NCBI GenBank assembly: GCA_022646745.1
Contig: CP060262.1
Coordinates: 3,600,001 to 3,632,000, forward strand
Direction of reading: 5' to 3'
DNA length: 32,000 nucleotides
Origin: Planctomycetales bacterium
Lineage (GTDB): Bacteria; 4484-113; JAFGCY01
The notes under the pieces were generated by a model, which was not told the DNA's origin, did no database searches, and saw only the letters and a program-made list of their open reading frames with translations. Both the position numbers and the translations under genes were made by a program. Shown one piece after another: positions 2,493 through 29,908 of this stretch. Numbering within the stretch: position 1 is the first letter of the stretch; every line of letters starts with the position of its first letter.

Positions 2493-3800
2493 TTAAACGG
2501 TGCCGCTGCGCTCACGCCGGAGCTGCTGCCTGCGCTCTCCTGAGGCGACCAGCATGCTTTCCCGGCTGAGGCTGCGCACCTCCGCCAGCCCAATTGCGAT
2601 GATCAGTGAGACACTGACCATGCTCACGATCAGGCTGGTGCCGCCCACTGAGAAGAATGGCAGGGTCAGTCCACTGTTGGGCACTACATTCGTGGTTACC
2701 GCGATATTTACCATCGCCTGCAGGCAAATCGTGAATCCAATTGCGGCTGCGACTGTCCTGTGGAATGGTTCCCGGCAGCGGCCTGCGAGTTCGGAAGAAA
2801 ACCAGGCGAGGGCCACGAACAGCCCCATCACGAAGATCCCGCCGAGCAAGCCCAGCTCCTCGATGATGATCGGGAAGACGAAGTCGGTGCGTGCGAAGGG
2901 CAGGCGGTTGAGCTTCTGTTCGCTGCGGAGGTAGCCGCGGCCAGCGGTGCCACCATCGATGATCGCACCCATAGACTGGGTGATCTGGAATGAGGCGGCG
3001 TTCTCGTTCTCCATCGGGTTGCGAAAGGTCTCCAGCCGCTGGCTGACGTAGGGCACGAAATACGGCGCCACGTAGAACACGGACAGCCCGAGCACGACCA
3101 GCGTGGCCAGGATGGCAATCTTCTGCATGCGGCTGATGCCGGCGATGAACAGCGTGATCACGCTGGCGGCCACGATGATCGCGGTACTGCCGAGGTCCGG
3201 CTGGATCACGGTGAAGCCCGCTGCAGCCCCGATCGCAAGGAAGGCCAGCAGCGGGGCATGCGGCCAGTTGGGCCGCCTGCTGCTGAGCACCCTGCCCTGT
3301 TCCTTGGCCTTCAGTATCTCCTCAGGCTGGCGACGCCACCAGCACAGCAGCTGGGCAAGGTAGAGGATCAGGAACAGCTTCAGCAGTTCCGACGACTGGA
3401 AGGTGATGCCCATCACCTCGATCGAACGCGTGGCACCGTTGGCGGATACACCAAGGTCCGTCAGGGAAACGAGTGCAACAAGTGAGAGGCTGACCAGGAA
3501 GAACACCGGGATCACGAAGCGCGCCCAGCGGCGGATCGGCGAGAAGGCGACAAAGGCGCTGATGCCGACGAGGCTCAGCACCACGCCGATGCCCATCATC
3601 ATCATGTGGCGGATGAAGTCGCCGTAGGGAGCTTCACCGGCGGCAATGTTCGAGTAGACCGTGGTTGAATAGACCATCGCGGCACCCATCAGCATCAGCA
3701 GGATGAGCACGATGGCAACGCTGCGCACGGAGGCCTGCAGCGCACGGATGCGCGGACGCGCGCTGAGTGCCACTGGAGACGTCTGAGTCTCGTATCCCAC
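2493..3800 (-). CDS. ftsW: SEDS-family peptidoglycan polymerase FtsW (GTG start)
   Basis: 435-aa polytopic membrane protein of the FtsW/RodA/SpoVE type (...QPDLGSTAII..., ...TDFVFPIIIEELGLLGG..., ...GLTLPFFSVGGTSL...). It lies directly downstream of murD in the dcw cluster. Confidence 0.85.
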   Translation of the reverse strand: MGYETQTSPVALSARPRIRALQASVRSVAIVLILLMLMGAAMVYSTTVYSNIAAGEAPYGDFIRHMMMMGIGVVLSLVGISAFVAFSPIRRWARFVIPVFFLVSLSLVALVSLTDLGVSANGATRSIEVMGITFQSSELLKLFLILYLAQLLCWWRRQPEEILKAKEQGRVLSSRRPNWPHAPLLAFLAIGAAAGFTVIQPDLGSTAIIVAASVITLFIAGISRMQKIAILATLVVLGLSVFYVAPYFVPYVSQRLETFRNPMENENAASFQITQSMGAIIDGGTAGRGYLRSEQKLNRLPFARTDFVFPIIIEELGLLGGIFVMGLFVALAWFSSELAGRCREPFHRTVAAAIGFTICLQAMVNIAVTTNVVPNSGLTLPFFSVGGTSLIVSMVSVSLIIAIGLAEVRSLSRESMLVASGERRQQLRRERSGTV

Positions 3801-3827
3801 TGTTCACCTCAAAACCCGGCGGCGTGC

Positions 3828-5195
3828 TCAGCCAAGCTCAAGCGATGCGACGATCTGCTTGAAGTGCTCACCGCGCACGTCGAAACCGGGGTACTGGTCG
3901 AAGCTGGCGCAGGCCGGTGACAACAGCAGTGTTCCACCCTCGCCCGCCAGTTGCCGTACACCCTCACGCACGGCCTGTTCGACGTTATCAACCCTCGAGA
4001 TTCCATTATAACCTGCTGCGCGCAGTTCCTGCTCGAATCTGTCAGCGGCTTCGCCATAGACGATGGCATGCTGCGCCTTCTGCTTCAGCAGCTCAACCAT
4101 CGCAGACAGGTCGGTATTCTTGTCACGACCACCGAGGATGATTGCCAGTGGACCCTCCATCGCCCTGAGCGCGATGATCGTGGCCTCTGGATTGGTGGCC
4201 TTGCTATCGTTGTAGAAGCGGATCCCGCCTGCCTCGCGGCAGAGCTCGATGCGGTGTTCATAGCCGTGGAAGCTGGACAGGCGTTCAATGATCGTCTCAG
4301 CCGTGGCCCCGACCGTCAGGCAGGCGAGGATCGCCGCCATTGCATTCTCCACATTATGCAGGCCCGGGATCTGGATGCAGTCGAGCGGGATCTCCGCCCC
4401 TTCGCTGCCAAGGTCGCAGATGATGCGGTCATTGGCAAGCCAGGCCCCGCGCAGTCGGTTGCCTGGGGTGGAGCGGTACTGCAGGAAGTGCAGGTCCGGC
4501 CGGTTGAACACGTCGGGGTGGAACTCCGGGGTCATGGCGTTCGTGATCACGAAGTCCCCTTCCTGCATGTTGTCGACCATGCGCCGCTTGATGCGGGCGT
4601 ACTCCTCCACGGTGCCGTGGCGGTCCAGGTGGTCCGGCGTCAGGTTTGTATAGATCGCGATGCGGGGCGCGAAGGCATCAATCGCCTCAAGCTGGTAGCT
4701 GGACACCTCCAGCGCGACGAACTCATTGGGCTGGATCTCATCGAGGCTGGCCAGCAGCGGGGAACCGATGTTGCCAAGCACATGGCAGGGGCCGAGCGCC
4801 GAGAGGATGTGCCCGAGCATCACGGTGGTGGTGCTCTTGCCGTTGGTGCCGGTGATGCCGATCAGGTAGCCCTCGCAGTAGCGCGAGGCGAACTCCAGCT
4901 CGGAGATCACGTTCACACCCGCTGCCAGCGCTGCCGACACGTTTTCGTTCGTCAATGGCACGCCGGGGCTGACGATCAGGGTGTCCAGCTCCCTGGCCTG
5001 CTTGAGTGCGTCGTCACCCGCCAGCAGGTCATAGCGGTCCTCGGCCTCCGCCTGCAGTCGTGTGAGATCTTCCGCAGTGGTGTTGTCAACAATCACCAGC
5101 GGGCGCACCATACGCGGCGCGAGGTACTCGACGCAGGCCCTGCCCGTCTTGCCGAGTCCGTAGATGCCAACCTTCTGTCCGAGCCAGTCGTTCAA
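3828..5195 (-). CDS. murD: UDP-N-acetylmuramoylalanine--D-glutamate ligase (TTG start)
   Basis: 455 aa. N-terminal GLGKTG Rossmann-like motif, Mur-ligase P-loop GITGTNGKSTT, C-terminal ...LLSPACASFDQY... Sits at the dcw position between mraY and ftsW. Confidence 0.92.
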   Translation of the reverse strand: MNDWLGQKVGIYGLGKTGRACVEYLAPRMVRPLVIVDNTTAEDLTRLQAEAEDRYDLLAGDDALKQARELDTLIVSPGVPLTNENVSAALAAGVNVISELEFASRYCEGYLIGITGTNGKSTTTVMLGHILSALGPCHVLGNIGSPLLASLDEIQPNEFVALEVSSYQLEAIDAFAPRIAIYTNLTPDHLDRHGTVEEYARIKRRMVDNMQEGDFVITNAMTPEFHPDVFNRPDLHFLQYRSTPGNRLRGAWLANDRIICDLGSEGAEIPLDCIQIPGLHNVENAMAAILACLTVGATAETIIERLSSFHGYEHRIELCREAGGIRFYNDSKATNPEATIIALRAMEGPLAIILGGRDKNTDLSAMVELLKQKAQHAIVYGEAADRFEQELRAAGYNGISRVDNVEQAVREGVRQLAGEGGTLLLSPACASFDQYPGFDVRGEHFKQIVASLELG

Positions 5196-18600: not shown

Positions 18601-19130
18601 AGGAGTTCGTTGACACCTTCGTGTTCACGCGCTTCGAGCCGAGCGGCACCTGCGACCACCCGAACATCAAGATGGCGCAGAGCGTGATCGATTACGTGTT
18701 CCGCGTGCTCGGTATGGAATACCTCGGCCGCACGGACTTCGTGCAGGTCAAACCCGCCGCCGATGAGCTGATCCTCAACCAAAACGAGCGCCAGATCCGC
18801 CTCGAGGCCCAGCCGCTGGTCAGCGCCAGTGAGGCTGCCCGTGCGGACCGCGAAGCCGGTGATGCCCCCCTGCCCCATGGCAACGGCAATGGCGGAAACG
18901 GGCATTCAGTCCATCCGCCCCAGCCGGTGCTCAGTGGCAATGGGAATGGAAACAGCAACGGTAACGGGAATGGCAATGGTGCGCGGCATGCCACCAGCAA
19001 TGCGATGGAGGAGCAGCTCAGCTCAATGATGGGTGACGCCCCCTTCTGCGAATCCTGCGGGCATGTGACGGTGCGCAACGGCTCCTGCTACAAGTGCCTC
19101 AACTGCGGTACCAGCCAGGGCTGCAGCTAG
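15690..19130 (+). CDS. nrdJ: class II (adenosylcobalamin-dependent) ribonucleotide reductase, long form
   Basis: 1146 aa. The N-terminus [23 protein letters not shown]...[12 protein letters not shown] and core motifs (...[21 protein letters not shown]..., ...[32 protein letters not shown]...) are typical of NrdJ. There is a C-terminal CxxC...CxxC zinc-ribbon tail (CESCGH...CYKCLNCG). GAGG lies 7 nt upstream of the ATG. Confidence 0.93.
19103..19128 (+). repeat. Direct repeat copy 1 (last 26 nt of the nrdJ coding sequence)
   Basis: CTGCGGTACCAGCCAGGGCTGCAGCT recurs at 22080-22105 with one mismatch (T/C). Confidence 0.9.
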
Positions 19131-19290
19131 GCAAGAACTAACAGCATTCAGGTATTCCAGCAAATCCCCATTAGTTGGGAAGTCTGTGAAGTCCAGTTAT
19201 ACTCTTCTTGGGTGCTGGACCTGTCCGGCACTGGTTGGAATACAGGAACCCTGTGTTACACCGAAGCGGCTGAATGAACTGGGGGTTTGC

Positions 19291-22071
19291 ATGCGAACAA
19301 TCTTTGTGATTTCGTGCTTACTATTGCTGCAACTTGTTGCCTGTAGCAAAGTTAATACTCCTGAGTTCTCTGCCAGTCCACAGGTACAGCCGACTGGCAT
19401 TCCCGGTTCCCCTGCTTCACCTGATTCGGGTAGCCCAGATGTCTCACCGCAATTTCCGCTGGATCTCAGTCCAGTAGCTGCCAGAAACTCCATCACTTCC
19501 AATACCGGTCCCGGTACATACCAGGTACTTGGGAAAAGCAGCCACTCGGAGTCATTAACAGGTACGACAATTCATGATGCCGCATTGGCCATTGACAGCT
19601 CGATTGACGGGCTGGCTTACGGCATCTGGCGCATCCAGATGAAAGATTCGCAACCCGGCCTGATCCGACTGGATGTCAATCTCCACCAGAATAATGCCGG
19701 ACTGCCTTCTCAGTTCATGGTTGGCATAGCGGACTATTCCAGTGGTCGCTGGAATCTCCAGGGGCCATTTACTGATGGCCATCTTCTTCTTACAACCGCC
19801 GCAGATGTGCTGGCTGGCAGCGACTATCTCTCTCCTGGCAATGCAATGTTTGTTTCCGTGATCTGCTCCGATGACAATCGGCTGGACATGCTGGCGGTCT
19901 GTGCCGCTGAATTGATTGCCGTTGACCAGAGTCCCCCGACGGCGATCAGCGGAGTCAGCGCTACTGCCATTGCTGGTGGAATGTACCTTGAATGGTCGCC
20001 CAACCTCAATCCGGACCTGGCAGGATACAGGCTGCTTTACTCTGAGGTCAGCTTCGAGGATGCTGAAGATCCCAATGTGCAGATCATGCCCAGCCTGGCG
20101 GGAACAACAAGCTACATTGTCAGGCATTCTTCTCCGGAACTGTATGTACGTGTGCAGGCAGTTGACAGGACTGGCAACCTCGGTCCCCTGAGCGAACAGG
20201 TAATGGTACAGCCCCTCCCTGACGAGCCGACGCAGTTGCTGCTGAATGTCGATGCCCCCAGCGGAAAGTCCGGAACGGTCTTCACACTCCAGACTGGCGG
20301 TGCTGCAGAAATTCTGCTGGATCTTGACTACGACGGATTCTTTGACGACGGCAGCTGGGATGGCAATCCAATCAGCATAGATTCATTTGGAAGGACCGGC
20401 ATCCTGAGGTTTCGGGCACTCGGTGAGAATCCTGGCAATGCCGTTTCCATTGCGGAGGTTTCAGTCTTTGTCGATGGCAACGCCAGTCCAGTAGTCGGGC
20501 TCACCGCCAGCGTTTATGCGGGGGACGCCCCACTGCTTGTGGACTTCACCGCAGACGCACATGATAATGAAGACCCGCTGGAAGAACTTACCTTCAAATG
20601 GGACCTTGACGGGGATCATGTGTACGAACTGGAGACCGAATCACCTGAAGTCATCAGTGAATTGTATGAGTTCCCTGGTGTTTACTATGTTTCCTGCCGT
20701 GTTTTCGATACGGATGGCGCATATGGCTATGACGATTTACCGATACATGTCTACGGTGAAGGACTCGAGGACCAAATGCCGGTTGCAGTTTTGTACACGA
20801 ATCCCACAAATTTTGGGATTGCCCCTTGCGAGGCAAACTTCAACGGCTCATCAAGCAGTGACCCAAATGGAACCATAGAACTCTACGAGTACGACTTCGA
20901 AGGGGATGGCATCTACGACGTGCCCACCACTGAATATGACCTCGTTTTCCATATTTATCAGGATCCAGGAACTTACTATCCCAAGCTTCGAGTCACTGAC
21001 AACGACGGATGGCAGGCCGTGGAGCAGAGACCTTTGGAGATAGCAGATCTGGAAGGCTGGTCAACCTACAAGGTCTACGATGGTGAGCAGTATGAATTTG
21101 ATGCAATCAGGCTGGGGATATCCGGCTCAAGTCCGGTGTTTTGCAATATCTGGGAAGATGCACCATTTGTCCGCTTCATAAACAGCCTGGACCCTGGAGG
21201 CAGTTCATGGAGCGATCCCGTAGTGGTCAGTACTGTCAGTCAAGCTGCTGGCGTTTCCATCATGGCAGTAAATGGCCTACCCGCCTTCTCCTTCGAACTG
21301 GACGGTTTTCTCAATTTCGTGCGTGCTGCTGACAATGCCGGATCCACCTGGTTGACTCCAGTACAGGCAGCTCCAATAATTGGTGCCAGTCACGCTTCAA
21401 TGGCGATCGTGGATGGCAATCCGGCAATCGCATTCCAGTACGGATATGATATCAACTGTGAGCTGCACTATGTGCGTGCCGCGGACGCGTCTGGTGACAG
21501 CTGGAATGATGTCGTCGTCGTTGAGAGTGAGATTCGTCCGGGAGGTGCCCCGCACCTGGCCGTGGTTGCCGGCAATCCCGCCATCTGCCACCATGAGTTC
21601 ACATCTTCGGACCTGCTGTACGTCCGTGCACTTGACAGCGAGGGAACCACCTGGGGCAACAGCATTGTGGTGGCCTCTGCTGGCGATGTCGGATTGCAGA
21701 GCAGCATGGAAATTGTCAATGGAAAGCCAGCTATCAGCTTCTACAAGGCGTACTTTGATCTGATGTATGTACGTGCGCAGGATGAGTTCGGTGCAAGCTG
21801 GGGAAGCCCTGTTCTCTTGTCTGAGGATTACACTAAATCCAGGGAGCCGATGAAGCTGATGCTTGTCGATGGGCGTCCTGCTGTTTCATATCCGGACAGG
21901 ATGCTTGGTGTCATGCAATTCCTTCAGGCCGAGGATATGAACGGCGCCAGCTGGAATGAGCCACTGCCTGTTTCCAATTCTATGGGCTCGCAGATGGTTG
22001 TGCTTTCAGACGGCCGTCCGGCATTCTATGAATATTTTGATAATGACATCCTGCTTACAGTCAGGGACTGA
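19291..22071 (+). CDS. secreted lipoprotein with an FN3-like domain, two PKD domains and a C-terminal ~7-blade Asp-box (BNR) beta-propeller
   Basis: I place the start at the ATG at 19291 (MRTIFVISCLLLLQLVAC|SK, a lipobox). FN3-like segment (...GGMYLEWSPNLNPDLAGYRLLY...). Two PKD-like segments (...VDFTADAHD...FKWDLDGD...YYVSCRVFDTDG... and ...ANFNGSSSSDPNG...YDFEGDG...YYPKLRVTDNDG...). Seven G-x-PA...[YF]VRA-x-D-x-x-G-x-x-W repeats. GC is clearly lower than in neighbouring genes. Confidence 0.8.
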   Translation: MRTIFVISCLLLLQLVACSKVNTPEFSASPQVQPTGIPGSPASPDSGSPDVSPQFPLDLSPVAARNSITSNTGPGTYQVLGKSSHSESLTGTTIHDAALAIDSSIDGLAYGIWRIQMKDSQPGLIRLDVNLHQNNAGLPSQFMVGIADYSSGRWNLQGPFTDGHLLLTTAADVLAGSDYLSPGNAMFVSVICSDDNRLDMLAVCAAELIAVDQSPPTAISGVSATAIAGGMYLEWSPNLNPDLAGYRLLYSEVSFEDAEDPNVQIMPSLAGTTSYIVRHSSPELYVRVQAVDRTGNLGPLSEQVMVQPLPDEPTQLLLNVDAPSGKSGTVFTLQTGGAAEILLDLDYDGFFDDGSWDGNPISIDSFGRTGILRFRALGENPGNAVSIAEVSVFVDGNASPVVGLTASVYAGDAPLLVDFTADAHDNEDPLEELTFKWDLDGDHVYELETESPEVISELYEFPGVYYVSCRVFDTDGAYGYDDLPIHVYGEGLEDQMPVAVLYTNPTNFGIAPCEANFNGSSSSDPNGTIELYEYDFEGDGIYDVPTTEYDLVFHIYQDPGTYYPKLRVTDNDGWQAVEQRPLEIADLEGWSTYKVYDGEQYEFDAIRLGISGSSPVFCNIWEDAPFVRFINSLDPGGSSWSDPVVVSTVSQAAGVSIMAVNGLPAFSFELDGFLNFVRAADNAGSTWLTPVQAAPIIGASHASMAIVDGNPAIAFQYGYDINCELHYVRAADASGDSWNDVVVVESEIRPGGAPHLAVVAGNPAICHHEFTSSDLLYVRALDSEGTTWGNSIVVASAGDVGLQSSMEIVNGKPAISFYKAYFDLMYVRAQDEFGASWGSPVLLSEDYTKSREPMKLMLVDGRPAVSYPDRMLGVMQFLQAEDMNGASWNEPLPVSNSMGSQMVVLSDGRPAFYEYFDNDILLTVRD

Positions 22072-22731: not shown

Positions 22732-22772
22732 TACACATTTGTATTTTCCACGTTATACTATACACATGTATG
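22732..22772 (+). promoter_or_regulatory. Putative dinB promoter with two operator-like sites
   Basis: -35-like TACACA (22732-22737), 16-nt spacer, -10-like TATACT (22754-22759). Near-palindromes TACACATTTGTA (22732-22743) and TACACATGTATG (22761-22772). The same layout occurs upstream of dnaE2. Confidence 0.45.
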
Positions 22773-22792
22773 GACAAGCGGAAAGAATCATC

Positions 22793-24178
22793 ATGCTGGC
22801 GGACATGGACTGCTTCTTCGTTGAGGTGGAGCGCCTGCACCGGCCGGAGCTGCGTGGCCAGGCCGTGATCATCGGCGGGCAGCCGCACCGGCGCGGCGTG
22901 GTCTCCGCCTGCAGCTATGAGGCACGGCGCTTCGGGGTGCACAGCGCGATGCCGATGGGCGAGGCCTACCGCCGGCTGGGGCTGGACCCCTCCCATCCGC
23001 TGGCCGAGGGGCAGACCATCGAGCGCCGCGGCGTGACGGTCAACTTCCTGCACAGCGGGCTGCATGGCAACTATGGGCTGTACAGCCGCCGCGTGCAGGA
23101 CGTGGTCTCGTCGCTTGTGCCGGTGTTCCGGCCGAAGAGCGTGGACGAGTTCGAGATGGACATCACCGGCTGCGAGACCATCTTCCGGCGCGACTACGGC
23201 GGGATCGTCGAATTCGCCGAGGAGCTGCGCCGCCGGGTGAGAAGCGAGGTCGGCCTGCCGATGTCAATCGGGATCGGCCCCGGGCGGCTCGTCGCCAAGA
23301 TGGCCAGCCGCCACGCCAAGCCCGACGGGGTGTTCCGTGTGCTGCCGCAGGAGGCCGTGTCCTTCCTCGCCCCGCATGATGTGCAGGACGTGCCGGGGAT
23401 CGGCCCGGCCACGGCGGGCACACTGCGCGACATGGGGATCAACCGCGTCGGCCAGCTGCTCCAGCAGGACCAGGCGCTGCTGCGCCAGACCTTCGGGATC
23501 GGGATGTGGAGCCTCGTCAATACGCTGAAGCACGGCGAGGACCGCGCGGTGCCGCCGCCCAACACCGGCGGCGGGATGAGCGAGCATGGCTCGATGGGGC
23601 TGCTGATGCGCGAGGACGGGCATGAGTCGCCGGCGATCGGCTTCGGCCCGGCGCGCGGCAAGCCGAAGAGCATTGGGCATTCGGTGACGCTGGAGCGCGA
23701 CACGCTGGATACGGCGCTGATCAGGCGCACGCTGTGGCGCCTGACGGAGGATGCCTGCCGGCGGCTGCGGGAGAAGGACCTGGCGGCCGGGCATGTTACT
23801 GTCACGATCCGCTACAGCGACTTCCAGACCATCAGCCACGGCGTGATGCTGAATGAACCGACGGACCTCGACCGCGTGGTCTATGAGACGGCGCTGCGAC
23901 TGTTTGACGAGGCGCGCACGCGCCGCCTGCGCATCCGCCTGCTGGGGGTGCGCCTCGAGAAGCTCAAGCCCGGCCTGAGCCAGCTCAGCCTGTTCGAACC
24001 GAAGAGCGTGACGCGTGAGCGCCAACTGACGCATACGCTGGATGCCCTGCGCGAGAAGCACGGCCGCGACGTGGTGCTGCTCGGCCCGGGGGTGAACCAG
24101 ATCGGCAGCGAGCGCATCAGCACGGATAGCCAGGCCGGCGTGTCAGTGAGCATGAGCCCGCAGCGGAGTGCGGTGTAG
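22793..24178 (+). CDS. dinB: DNA polymerase IV (Y-family translesion polymerase)
   Basis: I place the start at Met 19 of the ORF (MLADMDCFFVEVE..., the canonical catalytic DMDxFF motif), with GGAAAGAA upstream. Also SACSYEARRFGV, SIGIGPGRLVAKMAS, VQDVPGIGPATAGTL. 461 aa, longer than typical because of a linker insertion. Confidence 0.9.
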   Translation: MLADMDCFFVEVERLHRPELRGQAVIIGGQPHRRGVVSACSYEARRFGVHSAMPMGEAYRRLGLDPSHPLAEGQTIERRGVTVNFLHSGLHGNYGLYSRRVQDVVSSLVPVFRPKSVDEFEMDITGCETIFRRDYGGIVEFAEELRRRVRSEVGLPMSIGIGPGRLVAKMASRHAKPDGVFRVLPQEAVSFLAPHDVQDVPGIGPATAGTLRDMGINRVGQLLQQDQALLRQTFGIGMWSLVNTLKHGEDRAVPPPNTGGGMSEHGSMGLLMREDGHESPAIGFGPARGKPKSIGHSVTLERDTLDTALIRRTLWRLTEDACRRLREKDLAAGHVTVTIRYSDFQTISHGVMLNEPTDLDRVVYETALRLFDEARTRRLRIRLLGVRLEKLKPGLSQLSLFEPKSVTRERQLTHTLDALREKHGRDVVLLGPGVNQIGSERISTDSQAGVSVSMSPQRSAV

Positions 24179-24190
24179 GGGCGGGGCACT

Positions 24191-24308
24191 GGAGGTCATT
24201 CCCATGGAATGACAGGTTTGCAAGCCCATGGCTTGCAGCAGGCCAGATGTGAAGGGAATGTGCCAATCCATGGCACTGGCCTCCTGCCAGACCGTGGGTC
24301 TGGCCTCC
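24191..24308 (+). repeat. 118-bp nested-palindrome (MITE/REP-like) element, copy 1
   Basis: Four 19-nt hairpins (8-bp stem, 3-nt loop): GTCATTCC-CAT-GGAATGAC (24195-24213), TGCAAGCC-CAT-GGCTTGCA (24219-24237), a degenerate GCCAATCC-ATG-GCACTGGC (24262-24280), and GCCAGACC-GTG-GGTCTGGC (24286-24304). The ends GGAGGTCA... and ...GGCCTCC are inverted. Confidence 0.8.
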
Positions 24309-24333
24309 CCCCTCCCCCGGTTACAATCCATCC

Positions 24334-25416
24334 ATGAACATCCCAAACGGCATCTGCATCGCGGCGCTCTGCTGCCTGCTTGGTTGCGGCGGTGGCTCCA
24401 GCCCCGATCCCGGCAGCAATGGAAATGGCAACGGTAACGGTAATGGCAATGGAAACCAGCCGCCCGCCGGGACGCAGGTCAGCAACAGCCGCCTGCGCAG
24501 TGTGACGGACTGGGTCTACTGGATCCAGGATCCGGATCTCACGGCGCTCGCCGCCGGCGACAGCCAGCTCGTGGTTATTGACTATTCCCAGGACGGCACG
24601 CAGGACACGGCCTTCAGCCCAGCGCAGATCAGCGCGCTCCAGGCCGGCGGGCGGCTCGTGGTCTGCTATCTGAGCATCGGCGAGGCCGAGGACTACCGCT
24701 TCTACTGGGGCCAGCAGGACGGCAGCACGGGGGCGGACTGGGGCAGTGACCCGCCCGCCTGGCTGGGGCCGACCAACCCGGACTGGGCCGGCAACTACAA
24801 GGTGCGCTACTGGGACCCCGGGTGGCAGCAGCTGATCATTGCCAATCCCGGCGGGCATCCCGTGCTGGGGGACGCCCCAAGCTACCTCGACCGGATCATC
24901 GATGCCGGCTTCGACGGGGTCTTCCTCGACATCGTGGACGGCTTCGAGTACTGGGGTCCGGCGGAGGACGGCGGCATTGGACAGCGTGCGCAGGCTGCCT
25001 CTGACATGGCGGACTTCCTCGCGGCGCTGGCAGCGCATGCCCGCAGCCGGGACGCAGACTTCATCATCTGCCAGCAGAACGGCGAGGCCCTGATCAGCGA
25101 TGAGCTGGCCCAGCCACTGGACAGCTCACGGCGCCAGGCTGTGCTTTCGGCGGTGGACTGGCTCAGCGTGGAGGACGTGTTCTACCAGGGCGAGCTGGAT
25201 GCCAACAATCCGCTGGATCCTGACAACTACCGCATCGGCCTGATCGATGCCTACCGCAACGCGGGTGAGTTCGTGAGCATCATCGACTACTTCGATGCCG
25301 CTGAACCTGGCTACAGTGCGGCAGCCGAGGCGGACTTCCTGAACCGCAGCAAGGCCCGCGGCTGGCTGCCCTATGCGGGAGTACGGGCGCTTGACCGCCT
25401 GGGCAGCGGCGGCTGA
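24334..25416 (+). CDS. GH114-like (TM1410/endo-alpha-1,4-polygalactosaminidase-type TIM-barrel) putative glycoside hydrolase lipoprotein
   Basis: 360 aa. Lipobox MNIPNGICIAALCCLLGC|GG followed by a (GN)n linker. The motifs ...VVCYLSIGEAEDYRFYW..., ...YKVRYWDPGWQ..., ...GFDGVFLDIVD... fit my recollection of the GH114/TM1410 family. Confidence 0.7.
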   Translation: MNIPNGICIAALCCLLGCGGGSSPDPGSNGNGNGNGNGNGNQPPAGTQVSNSRLRSVTDWVYWIQDPDLTALAAGDSQLVVIDYSQDGTQDTAFSPAQISALQAGGRLVVCYLSIGEAEDYRFYWGQQDGSTGADWGSDPPAWLGPTNPDWAGNYKVRYWDPGWQQLIIANPGGHPVLGDAPSYLDRIIDAGFDGVFLDIVDGFEYWGPAEDGGIGQRAQAASDMADFLAALAAHARSRDADFIICQQNGEALISDELAQPLDSSRRQAVLSAVDWLSVEDVFYQGELDANNPLDPDNYRIGLIDAYRNAGEFVSIIDYFDAAEPGYSAAAEADFLNRSKARGWLPYAGVRALDRLGSGG

Positions 25417-25426
25417 GGGGAGGCCC

Positions 25427-25544
25427 GGAGGTCATTCCCATGGAATGACAGGCCTGCAAGCCCATGGCTTGCACTTTGAAGTGATTCTGTCCGCGTTGCC
25501 AATCCATGGGATTGGCCTCCTGTCAGGCCATGGGCCTGACCTCC
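25427..25544 (+). repeat. 118-bp nested-palindrome (MITE/REP-like) element, copy 2
   Basis: Same four-hairpin layout: GTCATTCC-CAT-GGAATGAC, TGCAAGCC-CAT-GGCTTGCA, GCCAATCC-ATG-GGATTGGC, GTCAGGCC-ATG-GGCCTGAC. The 26-nt terminal inverted repeats GGAGGTCATTCCCATGGAATGACAGG and CCTGTCAGGCCATGGGCCTGACCTCC match at 22/26 when one is reverse-complemented. Confidence 0.85.
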
Positions 25545-25630
25545 CGCATACCACGTCATTCAGCGCGACCCGGATGCGCTGATGCGCAGCTGCAGCGCTA
25601 GACCGCCGAGTGCTTGCATGAGGCGGCGAA

Positions 25631-28600
25631 TCACACCGGTGCATAGCTCGCGGGCTTGCTGCCCTTGCGGCGGCCGCCCTCGGCATCGTCGGCAACGAGG
25701 CGGTCCAGCTCATCGAGGCGCAGGAGCTTCAGCTCCTGGATTGACAATGTGCAGGTGCCGAACTGCTCCTCCACCTTGCCGGTGATCAAAAACGGCCCGG
25801 TGTAGCGCGTGAGCGGGGCGTAGCGGGCGTACTTGTCAGCGCGCAGGGTGCATTCGAAGGTGCCGGTCAGGTCCTCCATGCTCATGAACTTCATCGAGTT
25901 GCCGGGCCCGATGAATCCTCCCATCGTATGCGAGTCCGTCCCGCGGTTGCGGGACGGTGAGGTACCAGGGACCTGGGACCCGGGACCGGAAGAGGTTTCG
26001 GGTTTCGGGTTTCGGGTTTCGGTACCCGTAGCGGCGGCTTCCAGCCGCCGTCCGGCAGTTGCCGGTAGTGAGTTGTCAGTTTCAGCAAATCCATGGGATT
26101 GGCCTCCTGTCAGGCCATGGGCCTGACCTCCTACTCCCTCCTGACTCTTGCCAGTTCCCCGTTCCCCGTTCCCTGTTCCATCCCCGCGGCCCACGGCCCA
26201 GTCGTCGGTCATGCCGCCGCGCCTGACCAGGCCGAGGTCGGCCGCTGTGTCATTCAGCTCGTAGTCCTCGTCGCCACCGATGCCGCTCACGCTCAGTTCA
26301 TCCTCGTCGGCGGTGTACTGCTCCGGGTCATCATGGTTGGCAGCCTGCAGCTCGATCATGTCCTGCACCTGCCGGCGGCGCGAGAGGTCGACGCGCTTGG
26401 TGGCGATGCACCAGCCGAGCATCCGCACCCAGCGCCCGGCGTAGCGCGGCATCTCGCGGGCGTCGACAAGCCCGCTGACGAGGTTGGCATACAGGCTCAG
26501 GGGGTGGCGGCGCACCAGCATGCCGTAATGCTTCAGCTCGAGCGCGCAGAGCTTCAGCTCGTCGTAGTCATCGAGCCGTCCGGCCATGCGGCGGCGGAAC
26601 TCCTCAAGGCGAGCCGTCTCGTCGAATGGCAACTGGGAGGTTACTGGTTGCTGGTTGCTGGTTGCTGGTACTCCGGCAGCCGGCCCGTTTGACATCCCCA
26701 CCCGTGGATCTCCTTCGTCGATCCCCTCCCGGGATGTCCGGCTGCCAGGATAGGGATCAGAGATGCGGGATGCGGGATGAGCATTCCTGACACGCTCATT
26801 GCTCATTGCTCCCTGCTCATTGCCGGAGGAGTAATTGTCAGCTTCAGGGCTGACCTCCGTTCCATGGTCCCCGATCCCCGGTCCCCGGTCCCTGACCCGT
26901 CGCTTCGGCGTCGAATGCCGCAGTCCCGCTTTCCTCTCCTGCTGGGCCAGCCAGAGCAGCTCCGGGCGGCTCATGCCGAGGCTGTCCAGCGCCCCGGCCA
27001 GAACCAGCAGGTCGAGCTCCGACTCCGAGGGCCCGCAGCGGCGGATGAAGTCCGGCAGGCTGCGGAAGGGGCCATGCCCGCGGGCGGAAACGATGCGCTC
27101 GGTGATGGCAATCGGCAGGCCCTTGATGACTACGAGGGGCAGACGGATTGAGGAGCTTGGAGGTTGGAGTGTGGAGGTTGGAGCAGATGAGGGACCAGGG
27201 ACCCGGGACCCGGGACCAGAAGAGATTGGAGCTTGGAGGTTTGAGGTTGCAGTAGCGGCGGCTTCCAGCCGCCGGCTGGAGGGATGAGCAGTCCCGCCAC
27301 GCTCCTTGCTCATTGCTGCCTGCTCATTGCTCTGTGTCCTCTGTGCCTCTGTGGTTGACAATATGTGTTGTGCGGCTTGCACCGCACCTCCATCCTGGTC
27401 CCCGGTCCCCGATCCCTGATCCCTGTTGTCAGCCTCACGGCTGGGCTCCGCTGCCAATCCATGGGATTGGCCTCCTGTCAGGCCACGGGCCTGACCTCCT
27501 TCTCCCATCCCACATCCCCCATCCCGCATCCCGCATTCCGCACTGTAGTTCAGCCCCGAATGGTTGACATCCGGTGGCAGGATCGACAGGCCGAGTCGCT
27601 CGCATTCACTGATGTAGGCCCGCGCGCCGTAGAAGCCGCCGCCGTTGTCAAGCACCGCCGCCATGAACTGCGCCGGGTAGTGCGCCTTCAGCCAGGCCAC
27701 CTGGTAGCTCAGCGTGGCGAAGCTCGCCGAATGCGCCTTGCAGAAGCTGTAGCCGCTGAAGCTCGCCAGCTGCCGCCAGATCTCCAGCGCACTCGCCGTA
27801 TCCATCCCGCGCGCCTCGCAGCCGCTGACGAACTTCTCGCCCAGCGCCAGCATGCCGTCATGACGGTGCGGCTTGCTCATCACGCGGCGCATCAGGTCGG
27901 CATCGCTGCGTGACAACCCGGCCAGCTCATGCGCCACGCGGATCACATCCTCCTGGTAGATCATCACCCCATGCGTCTCCGGCAGCAGCTCCAGCATGCG
28001 CGGATGCGTGCGCAGCTCATGACGCGCCCCGTTCACACGGCGGATGTACTCCTGCATCATCCCGCTCTCCGCCACGCCAGGGCGGATCACGCTGGATGCC
28101 GCCGTCAGGCCGAGGAAGTCGCGCACGCCCAGCCGCTTCAGCAGCTGGCGCATGGCCGGGCTTTCGATGTAGAAGCAGCCCATCGTTTCGCCATGCCTGA
28201 CGAGCGCGTTCGTGGCCGGGTCCTGCGAGACCTGCTCGTGGTCCGTCAGGTCCGGCTTCAGGCCCTGTTCCCTGAGCGTTGCCAGGGTGTCCTCCAGCAC
28301 GCCGAGGCTGCGGTTGCCCAAGAGGTCGATCTTGATCAGCCCGACGGCCTCCACCGGGTGCATGTCGTACTGCGTGACGACGAAGCCCTTGGCGGCGCGC
28401 TGCAGACCGGTGAAGTAGTCCACATGGTTCGGCGCGATCACGATCCCGCCGCAGTGGATGCCGAGGTGCCGTGGCCGTCCGGCGAGCCGCGTTGCCAGCG
28501 GCAGCACGTGGCAGTATGGTTCGCTGTGCAGGTCCACGCCGCGCATCTCCGGGAAGTCGCGCACCACGCTGTCCAGCCCCGAGGCGCGGATGTTCGGCAG

Positions 28601-29908
28601 GAAGCGGCTGATGGTGCTGATCTCGCGGTCGCCGAGGCCATAGACCTTGGCAACCTCGCGCAGGGCCGAGCGTGCGCGGAAGGTCACGTGCGTGCTGATC
28701 ATGGCGACACGCTCATGGCCCCAGCGGTCGTAGACGTACTGCACGATCTCATCGCGCCGCCGCCAGTTGAAGTCGATGTCGATGTCCGGCGGGCTCTTGC
28801 GCGCCGGGTTGAGGAAGCGCTCGAAGTACATGTCGTAGCGGATCGGATCCACCGGTGTGAGGCCCAAAAGCCAGCTCACGAGCGAGTTGGCGGCCGAACC
28901 GCGCCCGAGGCAGGGGATGCGGCGGCGGCGGGACTCGCGCACGATGTCGTACACAGCGAGGAAGTAGCTGGTGTAGCCCAGCCGGTCGATCGCACCGAGC
29001 TCCATCTCGAGGCGCGCGAGGTACTCCTCCGTGGGGTGGCCGAACTTCAGGTCCAGGCTGCGGCGGCACAGGCCATGCAGCGCACGCGCCGGGTCGCCAC
29101 CGCCGGGCAGTTCGTAATGCGGGAACAGCCACTTGCCGTACTCGAACTCCACGTTCGTGGCCATTGCCAGCTTGCGGGCGTTGTCAAGCGCCTGCGGGCA
29201 GTCGTAGTAGTAGCCGCCCAGTTCCGTCGGTGCGCCGAGGTAGTGCCAGTTGCGGCGCACGCCGCGCGCAGTGTCCATCCCGCTGTTCTGCCCGATCGCG
29301 CGCAGCACGTGGTGCACCGGCTGGTCCTGCGGTCGCAGGAAGTGCACGTCGGTGCAGGCCACCGGGTGCAGCTTCAGCTCGCGGGCCAGCTTGAGCTGGC
29401 GGATCTGGCGCGCGCGCAGCTGCTCGCCGTAGTCCGGGGAGCAGCGCATGAACACGCGGTTGGGGCCAAGGCGCTTGAGCAGGATGCGCAGCAGCTCGTC
29501 GCGGTCACTGATGATCCAGCAGTGCTCGGTGTTGCCAAGCAGGGCGCGGGCCAGGTTGAACTGCGGGTCAAGCTGCCTGAGCGTGGCCAGCCGGCACAGC
29601 TCGCCGTAGCCGTCACGGTCGCGCGCGATCACCAGTGCGGCGGAGGCAGTCGGATCGGCGATGCCGGCCTCCAGCGAACGCCGCCCGGCCTGGGCCTTCA
29701 GTTCCTGCGGGTCGGTGAGGCTGATGCCGAGGACGGGGTGGATGCCGCACTTCAGGGCTGCGCGGTGGAAATGCAGCAGGCCATAGCAGCCGTCGGTATC
29801 GGCGATGCCGAAGGCCTCGAAGCCCAGCTCCGCCGCCTGCACGCAGAGATCCTCGGGGGCGCTGACCCCGTCATGGAAGCTGTACCAGCTGTGCGCGTCG
29901 AGATGCAC
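25631..29908 (-). CDS. dnaE2: DnaE2-type (error-prone, ImuC-like) DNA polymerase III alpha-subunit homologue with three in-frame insertions
   Basis: 1425 aa, GTG start. N-terminal PHP domain (HLDAHSWYSFHDGVS...IADTDGCYG), palm/fingers motifs (...PDIDIDFNWRRRDEI..., ...HCGGIVIAP..., ...GLIKIDLLGNRSL..., ...FCKAHSASFA...), and a C-terminal OB-fold region (...MKFMSMEDLTGTFECTL...). Removing the ~390 inserted codons leaves ~1035 aa, within the size range I recall for DnaE2. Confidence 0.85.
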   Translation of the reverse strand: MHLDAHSWYSFHDGVSAPEDLCVQAAELGFEAFGIADTDGCYGLLHFHRAALKCGIHPVLGISLTDPQELKAQAGRRSLEAGIADPTASAALVIARDRDGYGELCRLATLRQLDPQFNLARALLGNTEHCWIISDRDELLRILLKRLGPNRVFMRCSPDYGEQLRARQIRQLKLARELKLHPVACTDVHFLRPQDQPVHHVLRAIGQNSGMDTARGVRRNWHYLGAPTELGGYYYDCPQALDNARKLAMATNVEFEYGKWLFPHYELPGGGDPARALHGLCRRSLDLKFGHPTEEYLARLEMELGAIDRLGYTSYFLAVYDIVRESRRRRIPCLGRGSAANSLVSWLLGLTPVDPIRYDMYFERFLNPARKSPPDIDIDFNWRRRDEIVQYVYDRWGHERVAMISTHVTFRARSALREVAKVYGLGDREISTISRFLPNIRASGLDSVVRDFPEMRGVDLHSEPYCHVLPLATRLAGRPRHLGIHCGGIVIAPNHVDYFTGLQRAAKGFVVTQYDMHPVEAVGLIKIDLLGNRSLGVLEDTLATLREQGLKPDLTDHEQVSQDPATNALVRHGETMGCFYIESPAMRQLLKRLGVRDFLGLTAASSVIRPGVAESGMMQEYIRRVNGARHELRTHPRMLELLPETHGVMIYQEDVIRVAHELAGLSRSDADLMRRVMSKPHRHDGMLALGEKFVSGCEARGMDTASALEIWRQLASFSGYSFCKAHSASFATLSYQVAWLKAHYPAQFMAAVLDNGGGFYGARAYISECERLGLSILPPDVNHSGLNYSAECGMRDGGCGMGEGGQARGLTGGQSHGLAAEPSREADNRDQGSGTGDQDGGAVQAAQHILSTTEAQRTQSNEQAAMSKERGGTAHPSSRRLEAAATATSNLQAPISSGPGSRVPGPSSAPTSTLQPPSSSIRLPLVVIKGLPIAITERIVSARGHGPFRSLPDFIRRCGPSESELDLLVLAGALDSLGMSRPELLWLAQQERKAGLRHSTPKRRVRDRGPGIGDHGTEVSPEADNYSSGNEQGAMSNERVRNAHPASRISDPYPGSRTSREGIDEGDPRVGMSNGPAAGVPATSNQQPVTSQLPFDETARLEEFRRRMAGRLDDYDELKLCALELKHYGMLVRRHPLSLYANLVSGLVDAREMPRYAGRWVRMLGWCIATKRVDLSRRRQVQDMIELQAANHDDPEQYTADEDELSVSGIGGDEDYELNDTAADLGLVRRGGMTDDWAVGRGDGTGNGERGTGKSQEGVGGQAHGLTGGQSHGFAETDNSLPATAGRRLEAAATGTETRNPKPETSSGPGSQVPGTSPSRNRGTDSHTMGGFIGPGNSMKFMSMEDLTGTFECTLRADKYARYAPLTRYTGPFLITGKVEEQFGTCTLSIQELKLLRLDELDRLVADDAEGGRRKGSKPASYAPV
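25900..26390. repeat. dnaE2 in-frame insertion 3 (inside the OB-fold loop); modular repeats at 25935-26179
   Basis: Modules in order: hairpin CCGTCCCGC-GGTT-GCGGGACGG; GGGACC tract 25966-25989; (GGGTTTC)4 25994-26022; 23-nt GTAGCGGCGGCTTCCAGCCGCCG 26028-26050; half-element (hairpins C+D) 26085-26131; (GTTCCCC)3 26154-26179. Boundaries are approximate. Confidence 0.75.
26635..26925. repeat. dnaE2 in-frame insertion 2 (linker before the OB fold)
   Basis: Modules in order: (GGTTGCT)n 26639-26668; long hairpin GGCAGCCGG...CCGGCTGCC; (GATGCGG)n 26762-26782; 51-nt module 26774-26824; hairpin GTCAGC-TTCAGG-GCTGAC flanked by GGAGG/CCTCC; (GGTCCCC)n 26867-26898. Boundaries are approximate. Confidence 0.75.
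27149..27540. repeat. dnaE2 in-frame insertion 1 (between ...DVNHSGLNYSAE and IRLPLVVIKGL...)
   Basis: Modules in order: GGAGNTTGGAGGTT tracts 27152-27184 and 27226-27250; GGGACC tract 27191-27218; 23-nt GTAGCGGCGGCTTCCAGCCGCCG 27252-27274; 51-nt module 27281-27331; CTCTGTG repeats; hairpin GTGCGG-CTTGCA-CCGCAC; inverted GGTCCCC tract 27397-27425; half-element 27453-27499; CATCCC tract 27506-27540. Confidence 0.8.

Follow-up and report, generated by a model that had tools for sequence, protein, structure and literature searches.

A DnaE-family DNA polymerase gene, DNA polymerase III alpha-like, lies on the minus strand (25631..29908) of the 32,000-nt stretch of Planctomycetales bacterium contig CP060262.1 analysed here (positions 3,600,001 to 3,632,000 of the contig; hereafter the window). 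Its 1425-codon open reading frame (ORF) carries three lineage-specific in-frame inserts that total 316 codons (948 nt) and make up 22% of the protein. [quoted passage not shown]

The insertion status of the three blocks is directly supported by comparison with other DnaE proteins. Boundaries were set by aligning the window protein to 20 homologues (21 sequences) and by tabulating the length of each site. Outgroup DnaE proteins have 1-10 residues at site 1, 3-8 at site 2 and either ~5 or, in the wider clade, ~55-65 at site 3, whereas the window protein and its relatives P0002-P0005 have 81-127, 33-95 and 143-224 residues, respectively. Since the blocks are not found in the outgroup proteins, they are insertions and not conserved native domains, as the initial annotation of this DNA had supposed. 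Insert 1 (27152..27538, on the minus strand like all dnaE features below; aa 795-919, ~125-129 codons) separates the end of the fingers domain from the HhH domain; by alignment it reaches up to 27526 and the heptamer array there runs on to 27542, which leaves this upper limit uncertain by ~5 codons. Insert 2 (26633..26911; aa 1000-1092, 93 codons) leads from the HhH domain to the OB-fold region and stops just before the conserved LPFDE. Insert 3 (25919..26212; aa 1233-1330, 98 codons) sits in an OB-fold loop between ...ATKRV and MKFMSMED, and its edges, MTDDWAVGRG and SPSRNRGTDSHTMG, are kept within the close clade. Next to it, an acidic segment of the same loop (26213..26386, minus strand; aa 1175-1232, 58 codons, LSRRRQ...LGLVRRGG) is conserved in P0006-P0023, has a coding-type GC content at third codon positions (GC3, 0.86) and is free of repeat modules; this part of the OB loop is an expansion native to the wider clade and is not repeat-derived. 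The initial annotation had extended its third block over ~25900-26390 and estimated ~390 codons (1.17 kb) in all. The three in-frame blocks stand, but only 25919-26212 of the third is repeat-derived, the remainder being this native, clade-conserved segment, and the total falls to the 316 codons given by the alignment.

Disorder of the inserts is supported by an AlphaFold2 model of aa 700-1425 built from 63 aligned sequences. The HhH domain, the middle helices and the OB fold have a predicted local distance difference test score (pLDDT) above 90, and aa 798-914, 1016-1092 and 1195-1331 have a pLDDT below 50 and no secondary structure. The model matches Pol III alpha of M. tuberculosis, Thermus aquaticus and E. 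coli, and the matches of its OB part are the OB folds of RPA and tRNA synthetases. The inserts are thus modelled as disordered loops between confidently predicted HhH and OB domains; alignment and pLDDT bear out the placement first read from domain order, namely before HhH (where the fingers meet it), between HhH and OB, and within the OB-fold loop, where insert 3 splits the strands GRWVRMLGWCIATKRV and MKFMSMED. By sequence, insert 1 maps between E. coli alpha residues ~820 and 836, and insert 2 starts just past ~912, presumably adjoining the internal beta-clamp-binding motif, which we take to lie at E. coli alpha 920-924.

The repeat origin of the inserts is equally direct. Arrays were located with Tandem Repeats Finder, and modules by repeat finding and self-BLAST of the window. 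There are 14 period-7 arrays in the 32 kb, 13 of them within 25960-27542 and the other one intergenic at 24304-24318. The three blocks share modules with one another and with two intergenic regions flanking a GH114 gene, and with nothing else in the window, so the early description of low-complexity blocks made of hairpins and 7-nt repeats was accurate. One such module is the C+D pair, two 24-nt GGAGG-hairpin units, which occurs at 27453..27499 (read GGQARGLTGGQSHG; fold -16.8 kcal/mol, z -4.1) and at 26085..26131 (read GGQAHGLTGGQSHG; fold z -2.2), the two places where it had been noticed at the outset. Compared with intergenic DNA, these dnaE copies show 96-100% identity to 25498-25544 and 84% to 24262-24308, and a 46-nt C+D pattern with <=3 mismatches has 3 copies against 0.00 expected from 100 shuffles. 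The intergenic copies belong to a 119-nt A-B-spacer-C-D element on the plus strand (25427..25545), in which A pairs with D to form a long hairpin (fold -35.3 kcal/mol, z -4.9), and to its second copy, a direct repeat (24191..24309, plus strand; z -4.1); the two bracket the GH114 gene. The element is a REPIN-like pair of hairpin units in inverted orientation, in which B and C form local hairpins, and the C+D halves in dnaE fold as two local hairpins.

Further modules occur in the inserts, and heptamers of the GGGACC type are also among those that are shared. A single 24-nt GGAGG-hairpin unit at 26834..26858 is read EVSPEADN, and a further hairpin unit at 27425..27448 is read EPSREADN. The GC-rich hairpin CGGCGGCTGGAAGCCGCCG is read RRLEAAAT both at 27252..27276 and in its second copy at 26028..26053 (z -4.0). 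A palindromic element of ~70-80 nt (GCCGGACATCCCGGG...CCACGGGTGGGGATGTC) at 26676..26745, read SRTSREGIDEGDPRVGMSN, is also intergenic in the related loci L003, L005 and L008 (GCCGCCGGnC..TTGACATCCCC.CCCGTGG...CCACCCGGGATGTCCGGCGGC), once with another hairpin nested in its loop. A GCAATGAGC-type module stands at 26774..26824 (read GNEQGAMSNERVRNAHP) and, 90% identical, at 27281..27330 (read NEQAAMSKERGGTAHP), where it meets a ATTGTCAACC(CACAGAGG)n module (27330..27364, read ILSTTEAQRTQS) that is intergenic in L005 (1430-1480). On inspection, no module was found in the linker of the nearby dinB gene (23540-23670).

The 13 heptamer arrays of dnaE vary widely in unit sequence. Insert 1 holds (CATCCCG)x5.3 at 27506..27542 (sense GCGGGAT, with a G-quadruplex (G4) motif), a x4.6 array at 27394..27425 (sense GGGATCA/GGGGACC, with a sense-strand G4 motif), (GCTCATT)x4.6 at 27301..27332, (GAGGTTG)x4.0 at 27222..27249, (AGGGACC)x4.3 at 27190..27219 (read SGPGSRVPGP, with a G4 motif on the plus strand) and (GGAGGTT)x4.6 at 27152..27183. 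In insert 2 we find (GGTCCCC)x3.9 at 26866..26892 (sense-strand G4 motif), (GCTCATT)x4.3 at 26794..26823, (GATGCGG)x2.6 at 26762..26779, which is inverted relative to the array at 27506-27542, and (GGTTGCT)x4.4 at 26639..26669 (read ATSNQQPVTS). Insert 3 contributes (GTTCCCC)x3.7 at 26154..26179 (read GTGNGERGTG), (GGTTTCG)x4.1 at 25994..26022 (read ETRNPKPET) and (AGGGACC)x4.0 at 25960..25987 (read SGPGSQVPG). Copy number ranges from 2.6 to 5.3 and lies between 3.7 and 4.6 in 11 of the 13. Four of the arrays match the candidate G4 motif (G3+N1-7)x4, the others being without GGG tracts, and all canonical G4 motifs of the window fall in inserts 1 and 2 (26869-26898, 27191-27214, 27400-27423 and 27504-27532; three of the four on the sense strand).

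One feature of the hairpins deserves mention in its own right. Hairpins A and D have the form GGAGG-N8-ATG-NNN-TGA (24191-24216, 25427-25452, 26110-26131 and 27478-27499), that is, a Shine-Dalgarno (SD)-like motif, a start, one codon and a stop; the GGAGG leader is present on every hairpin family of the lineage, and its opposite strand, CCTCC, is the anti-SD sequence. We considered the SD-like GGAGG-N8-ATG of hairpins A, C and D as internal translation starts and rejected the idea: the ATGs are out of frame, and the arrangement is not found in other hairpin variants.

Beyond the window, the same repeats populate the intergenic DNA of the lineage. In 164,936 nt of lineage DNA with ~69 putative coding ORFs, 50 of the 51 in-ORF period-7 arrays belong to dnaE orthologues and one to a non-coding 5' ORF extension; 20 further arrays are intergenic. 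A 13-kb locus chosen independently of dnaE contains five heptamer arrays, all five intergenic. Intergenic arrays reach up to 17 copies and often start at, or a few bases from, a stop codon (L013 3365-3430, L014 2008-2035, L006 6168-6219, L008 14081-14119, L011 13388-13439). Most hairpin-repeat copies in the examined loci are intergenic too, among them chains of hairpin-CCTCC units (L008) and 4 tandem C+D-like copies repeated every 48 nt (L006); the others are in dnaE and in an ABC ATPase gene. Genes beside repeat clusters encode UPF0102, transaldolase, amidotransferase and HRDC-domain proteins as well as unknowns, and one orthologous contig carries the GTDB-style label 4484-113. In the sampled DNA of the lineage the modules therefore occur both between genes and, in frame, in a second gene, and none of the refuting conditions named at the outset is borne out.

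This second host gene encodes an ABC-2-type ATPase that has ~334 aa in most bacteria vs 381-446 aa in this lineage. Its linker holds 0 (P0124), 2 (P0122), 3 (P0123), 2 plus two partial (P0121 / L006) or 5 (L004) of the 24-nt GGAGG-hairpin units, in orthologues that are 79-98% identical. The units are in frame, are read GGQxxxLx, and have stems with compensatory changes. As each unit is 24 nt long, the gain or loss of one keeps the frame, a property that the heptamers do not have.

Turnover of insert content is directly visible among relatives. At least five related genomes, and every close orthologue, have inserts at the same three sites; shorter ones occur there in relatives at 53-63% identity. 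The protein from an independent assembly in ENA (P0001) is 100% identical over 1425 aa; P0002-P0005, at 86-71% identity, have 1294-1443 aa, as against 1000-1130 aa in most other homologues, and the dnaE ORF is intact in P0001-P0005 despite differing insert content. The locus itself is present in HKST-UBA01 (L005) at 96% identity and in AC1.30 (L007) at 94%; L008, L009 and L010 are the loci of P0004, P0005 and P0003, and L011 is more distant. Between the window and AC1.30 the flanks are 94% identical, yet the module sets are entirely different at all three sites. AC1.30 holds the C+D pair and an RRxxAAAT hairpin in insert 2, whereas the window holds both in inserts 1 and 3, and an ~85-aa composite of AC1.30 (SDNRDxG - STTETQRAQ - SREGIDAGD - ETRNPKPETSS - PGSQVPGP) is present in both its inserts 1 and 3. 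Yet other mosaics are found in L008-L010, with one L010 array of 12.4 copies where most orthologue arrays have about four. Many insert 3' ends consist of a heptamer pair, (GAAACCN)n followed by (GGTCCCN)n, and the inverted pair stands just after the dnaE stop in L008. The notion that this gene had been hit three times understates such a history, since the same sites are filled across the clade and their content is replaced between genomes with 94% identical flanks; the three sites are long-standing and permissive, their content keeps turning over, and they do not represent three hits of recent date.

In AC1.30, the 3' part of dnaE is duplicated in tandem over 1.4 kb (L007 ~3060-4380), which breaks the ORF in insert 1, and we considered this as a natural 'OFF' allele or pseudogene. 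The duplicate is 83% identical with 146 gap positions, its repeat modules being 100% identical and its unique parts full of insertions; since it is clean in the repeat modules alone, we take it as most likely a duplicate left by unpolished assembly. In three more distant homologues (P0006, P0007 and P0009; 53-61% identical) extra low-complexity inserts appear in a PHP-domain loop and at window aa 554-566 (labelled thumb/finger). As some of their peptides, such as GTGNREQGTGKREG, look like translated heptamers, insert-rich DnaE proteins are also present outside the close clade.

The open frame of the inserts is apparent from a six-frame check: the dnaE frame alone is stop-free in each insert and the other five carry 1-5 stops, so that all three blocks are in frame and without stops, as first described. 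Single modules are mostly open in 4-5 of the six frames, which indicates that the open frame of the whole mosaic is kept by selection and is not inherent in the repeats. Composition sets the inserts apart from the gene around them. Their GC content is flat over codon positions (GC3 0.54, 0.62 and 0.59 vs 0.90 in the rest of the gene), and their overall GC of 0.62-0.64 equals that of the neighbouring intergenic DNA; among the encoded residues G, S, T, P, Q and N abound, and L, I, F, Y and W are scarce. In the comparison of the window with HKST-UBA01, 36 synonymous and 3 non-synonymous codon changes fall outside the inserts, and 3 and 3, respectively, within insert 3. These counts indicate that the host gene is under purifying selection and that the amino-acid sequence of the inserts is only weakly constrained. 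From this evolutionary evidence we infer that the inserts are translated; tryptic peptides predicted from them include EGIDEGDPR, VGMSNGPAAGVPATSNQQPVTSQLPFDETAR and LEAAATGTETR.

A mechanism can be outlined from these observations. The building blocks would be the 24-nt GGAGG-hairpin units (as inverted doublets and tandem arrays), the 70-80-nt palindrome, the GC-rich hairpin and the heptamers of about four copies. Such non-autonomous hairpin repeats and slippage-prone heptamers could enter, duplicate and nest where repeats are already present, and unequal recombination, slippage and the exchange of composite blocks would then remodel them rapidly. Purifying selection on the polymerase would purge variants that shift the frame or bring in stops, and what survives would be a hydrophilic, disordered loop rich in Gly, Ser, Thr, Pro and Gln that the fold tolerates. 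A mobilising enzyme, and copying from intergenic DNA into the gene, are presumed in this outline.

Several results weigh against it. No transposase, RAYT (REP-associated tyrosine transposase) or IS200-like gene was found in the ~180 kb of lineage loci examined. At filled and empty sites of the ATPase gene, DNA alignment reveals no target-site duplication, the units abutting as a tandem array. The modules are invariably read in one orientation and frame despite being open in 4-5 of six, which could reflect copying between coding sites and not repeated intergenic entry. The exact C+D motif has the small count of 7 loci in 3 metagenome-assembled genomes (MAGs), namely HKST-UBA01 and HKST-UBA03 (both labelled UBP7) and AC1.30 (labelled 'bacterium'). 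Neither the C+D motif nor the 70-80-nt palindrome had a match in scans of metagenomes, in a collection evidently without these samples (L009 comes from a JGI sample). Finally, insert 2 of the window (26633-26911) and L005 118-396 show 0 differences over 279 nt, whereas the flanking coding DNA differs by 2.4-8.5%; such identity between diverged genomes is unexplained by simple decay and implies recent exchange or homogenisation. Further searches were negative as well. No related autonomous insertion sequence was found in the examined lineage loci, and scans of viral contigs gave 0 matches, hence no sign of phage origin. The insert 1 peptide returned no match in a word-indexed protein search, in which the parent protein was not returned either (presumably through low-complexity masking). 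An exhaustive HMMER search of 1.84 billion representatives returned only P0002; as modules of ~15 aa are too short for significance, all that this census establishes is that the insert does not represent a conserved domain.

An explanation that we regard as unlikely, although it accommodates several of these points, is that the inserts are native low-complexity linkers grown in place by slippage, their likeness to intergenic DNA reflecting a single mutational process at work throughout, or the export of copies from the gene. The filling of the same three sites across the clade, the minisatellite-like array of the ABC ATPase, the reading of modules in one frame only, and the lack of target-site duplications and transposase at the examined loci would all fit. 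What it cannot accommodate are stretches of 44-51 nt that are 96-100% identical between coding and intergenic copies, for which convergence is impossible, and the presence of complete palindromes (A-B-spacer-C-D and the 70-80-nt element) in intergenic DNA with halves in dnaE. The replacement of whole cassettes between 94% identical flanks is not stepwise, and the flat GC3 speaks against a long residence in coding DNA. A functional role, with the inserts as hypervariable cassettes or contingency loci whose heptamers switch the C-terminal DNA-binding or clamp-binding part, or with the loops as partner-binding tethers, seems quite improbable. The heptamer unit of 7 is not a multiple of 3, and several of the arrays are G4-prone. 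The dnaE gene is the sole sampled coding sequence with such arrays, all canonical G4 motifs of the window lie in its inserts 1 and 2, the sites are kept across the clade, and insert 2 is perfectly conserved between two diverged genomes. Against this, the window and HKST-UBA01 have no indels in inserts 2 and 3 and no difference in array copy number; the sole broken allele is the likely assembly duplicate of AC1.30; and amino-acid constraint is weak (the 3 synonymous and 3 non-synonymous changes of insert 3), with content not conserved between relatives.

That the inserts are intervening sequence outside the mature protein (an intron, an intein or a translational bypass) is very improbable, even though they are hairpin-rich and lack a coding-type codon composition. 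Rfam and tRNA scans of the window gave no matches, so that no known RNA family accounts for the hairpins and no group I or II intron is present, and Pfam finds no intein, Hint or homing-endonuclease domain. The five orthologues hold at least 15 distinct insert alleles, all in frame and stop-free, which is expected only if ribosomes read through the inserts. An assembly artefact, with repeats collapsed or chimerically joined in a MAG, would be conceivable given the metagenome source and the likely artefactual 1.4-kb duplicate of the same gene in AC1.30, and is barely credible here. The identical 1425-aa P0001 comes from an independent ENA assembly, HKST-UBA01 has the same inserts 2 and 3 without gaps, and in four further assemblies the ORF is intact and the same three sites are filled by inserts. 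Six independent assemblies thus exclude misassembly, which the initial annotation had named as a way to refute its claim. There is also a more ambitious reading, which we put forward as improbable: the 3' half of the gene may be a preferred and self-reinforcing landing pad to which repeats are drawn by earlier copies, with frame-breaking, G4-prone heptamers as contingency switches for the HhH/OB part, which binds DNA and clamp, of a damage-linked polymerase within populations, or the loops may have been adopted as tethers in place of the absent modules for tau and clamp interaction. If either were true, selfish intergenic repeats would have been domesticated inside a replication/repair enzyme.

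Several known systems share traits with these inserts. Rickettsia palindromic elements (RPEs), the precedent suggested from the outset, are short palindromes that occur in intergenic DNA as well as in frame within unrelated housekeeping genes, where they are translated as additional peptide at places tolerated by the fold; they have no transposase of their own (PMC10969869). They are discrete elements of ~100-150 bp from obligate intracellular alpha-proteobacteria; a gene usually has one, and each encodes a conserved peptide (PMC10969869). The repeats of the window are likewise palindromic, intergenic as well as in frame in genes, and would add extra peptide that the fold tolerates. In contrast, the window inserts are mosaics of 280-390 nt, three per gene and hypervariable among close relatives, in a free-living candidate phylum. 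The precedent holds for the pattern of intergenic and in-frame palindromes and is an analogy only; as the host belongs to the UBP7 phylum, homology to RPEs is not expected. REP and REPIN elements are mobilised by RAYT transposases and are essentially extragenic (PMC3116915). The units of the window and its lineage resemble them in forming inverted doublets that fold as a long hairpin, in clustering within or next to copies, in tandem arrays and in compensatory stem changes; unlike them, they are also in frame in coding DNA, carry a GGAGG leader on every unit and come without a RAYT gene in ~180 kb.

For the heptamers, the closest likeness is to cyanobacterial tandem heptanucleotides and to the GGGNATC-type G4 repeats of Xanthomonas and Nostoc, which show under-representation within coding sequences and are placed at stop codons (PMC4692102). 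Arrays of the window and the lineage similarly favour about four copies, include a G-tract subset, and have intergenic copies at or after stop codons; the presence of 13 arrays with many unit sequences in one gene, read in frame, is different. MITEs with in-frame fusions, such as ERIC, Coxiella QMITE1 and the Anabaena MITEs (PMC10969869, PMC5896051), compare in the inverted-repeat ends of the 119-nt element and the 70-80-nt palindrome and in the residues added to host proteins, and differ in that the window inserts are composite and modular, with no target-site duplication and no parent insertion sequence in the examined loci. Thus, what we describe resembles RPEs and is not a new kind of system; it is distinct in its composite, triple and hypervariable inserts with repeats that do not preserve the frame, and it extends the RPE phenomenon to a free-living host, to REP-like hairpin units and to heptamer arrays. 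If our reading is correct, 22% of a working polymerase in an entire clade of an uncultured phylum is translated 'junk' that turns over faster than the surrounding synonymous sites, and the clade offers a natural allele series on how folded proteins absorb sequence of non-coding origin.

The polymerase that hosts these inserts has, by Pfam, a PHP domain (aa 2-120), a pol III alpha NTPase domain (277-531), a finger domain (537-700) and HHH_6 (913-983). The PDIDIDF and KIDLLG residues are invariant across the alignment of 21 sequences, and we take them to hold the catalytic aspartates (cf. E. coli Pol III alpha D401, D403 and D555); because these are invariant, the polymerase looks active. Its subtype is less clear than the initial label, dnaE2 or error-prone, had implied. 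With the inserts, it scores 625 bits on the DnaE1 model NF004226 (cut-off 1002) and 576 bits on the error-prone model NF004225 (cut-off 939); with the inserts removed, it scores 666 bits on DnaE1 (model positions 188-1062 of 1146) and 609 bits on the error-prone model (9-1034 of 1047). It is thus below both NCBIfam cut-offs with or without inserts, DnaE1 being the higher score, and the insert-free P0032 and P0069 from other phyla behave in the same way. A practical consequence is that annotation pipelines score this polymerase under the family cut-offs. The tau-binding C-terminal domain is missing, as the DnaE1 match stops at 1062 of 1146 while the error-prone match runs end to end.

In several respects the protein is like DnaE2/ImuC: without inserts it has ~1050 aa, it ends right after the OB fold and it has no tau-binding domain. 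A Y-family polymerase gene a few kb from dnaE, in close and distant relatives, also recalls the imuA-imuB-dnaE2 cassette. On the other hand, there is neither imuA nor imuB among the neighbours of dnaE at the window locus, the DnaE1 score is higher and the error-prone score is under its cut-off, and the linked Y-family gene keeps the DMDCFF...SVDE motifs with an intact catalytic D-D-E and is therefore DinB-like, not ImuB-like. The polymerase belongs to a short DnaE group with a DnaE2-like architecture; as it fails the family cut-off and lacks imuA/imuB partners, the 'dnaE2' label is not established and should be taken as a hypothesis.

Around dnaE, the upstream neighbour is a beta-eliminating lyase gene, and downstream come the GH114 gene (24334-25416) and then the DinB-type Y-family polymerase gene (22739-24178), which is convergent with dnaE. 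The order lyase - dnaE - GH114 ... dinB is conserved, and in L011 the Y-family polymerase gene lies ~4.7 kb from dnaE. The rest of the window holds a cell-division/cell-wall (dcw) cluster, a class II ribonucleotide reductase gene and a PKD-domain protein gene.

The locus varies between relatives in gene content as well. In HKST-UBA01, with flanks 96% identical, the GH114 gene is missing and an HRDC-domain gene and a 525-aa unknown gene stand in its place, while L009 has all three. Inverted (CACAGAGG)n copies flank this HRDC-domain gene and the 525-aa gene in L005 (~1430-1480 and ~3790-3820), and no transposase domain is recognised by Pfam or NCBIfam in the 525-aa product. The repeat-rich intergenic junctions around GH114 look like deletion or recombination hot spots. 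Similarly, the PKD-domain gene of the window (19186-22071) is not in the collinear HKST-UBA01 locus, where only ~250 nt separate the ribonucleotide reductase gene from dinB. Lastly, (AATGGN)n hexamers at 18933-18979 and 24406-24455 give Asn-Gly repeats in two unrelated proteins, the class II ribonucleotide reductase (C-terminal tail) and GH114 (N-terminus).

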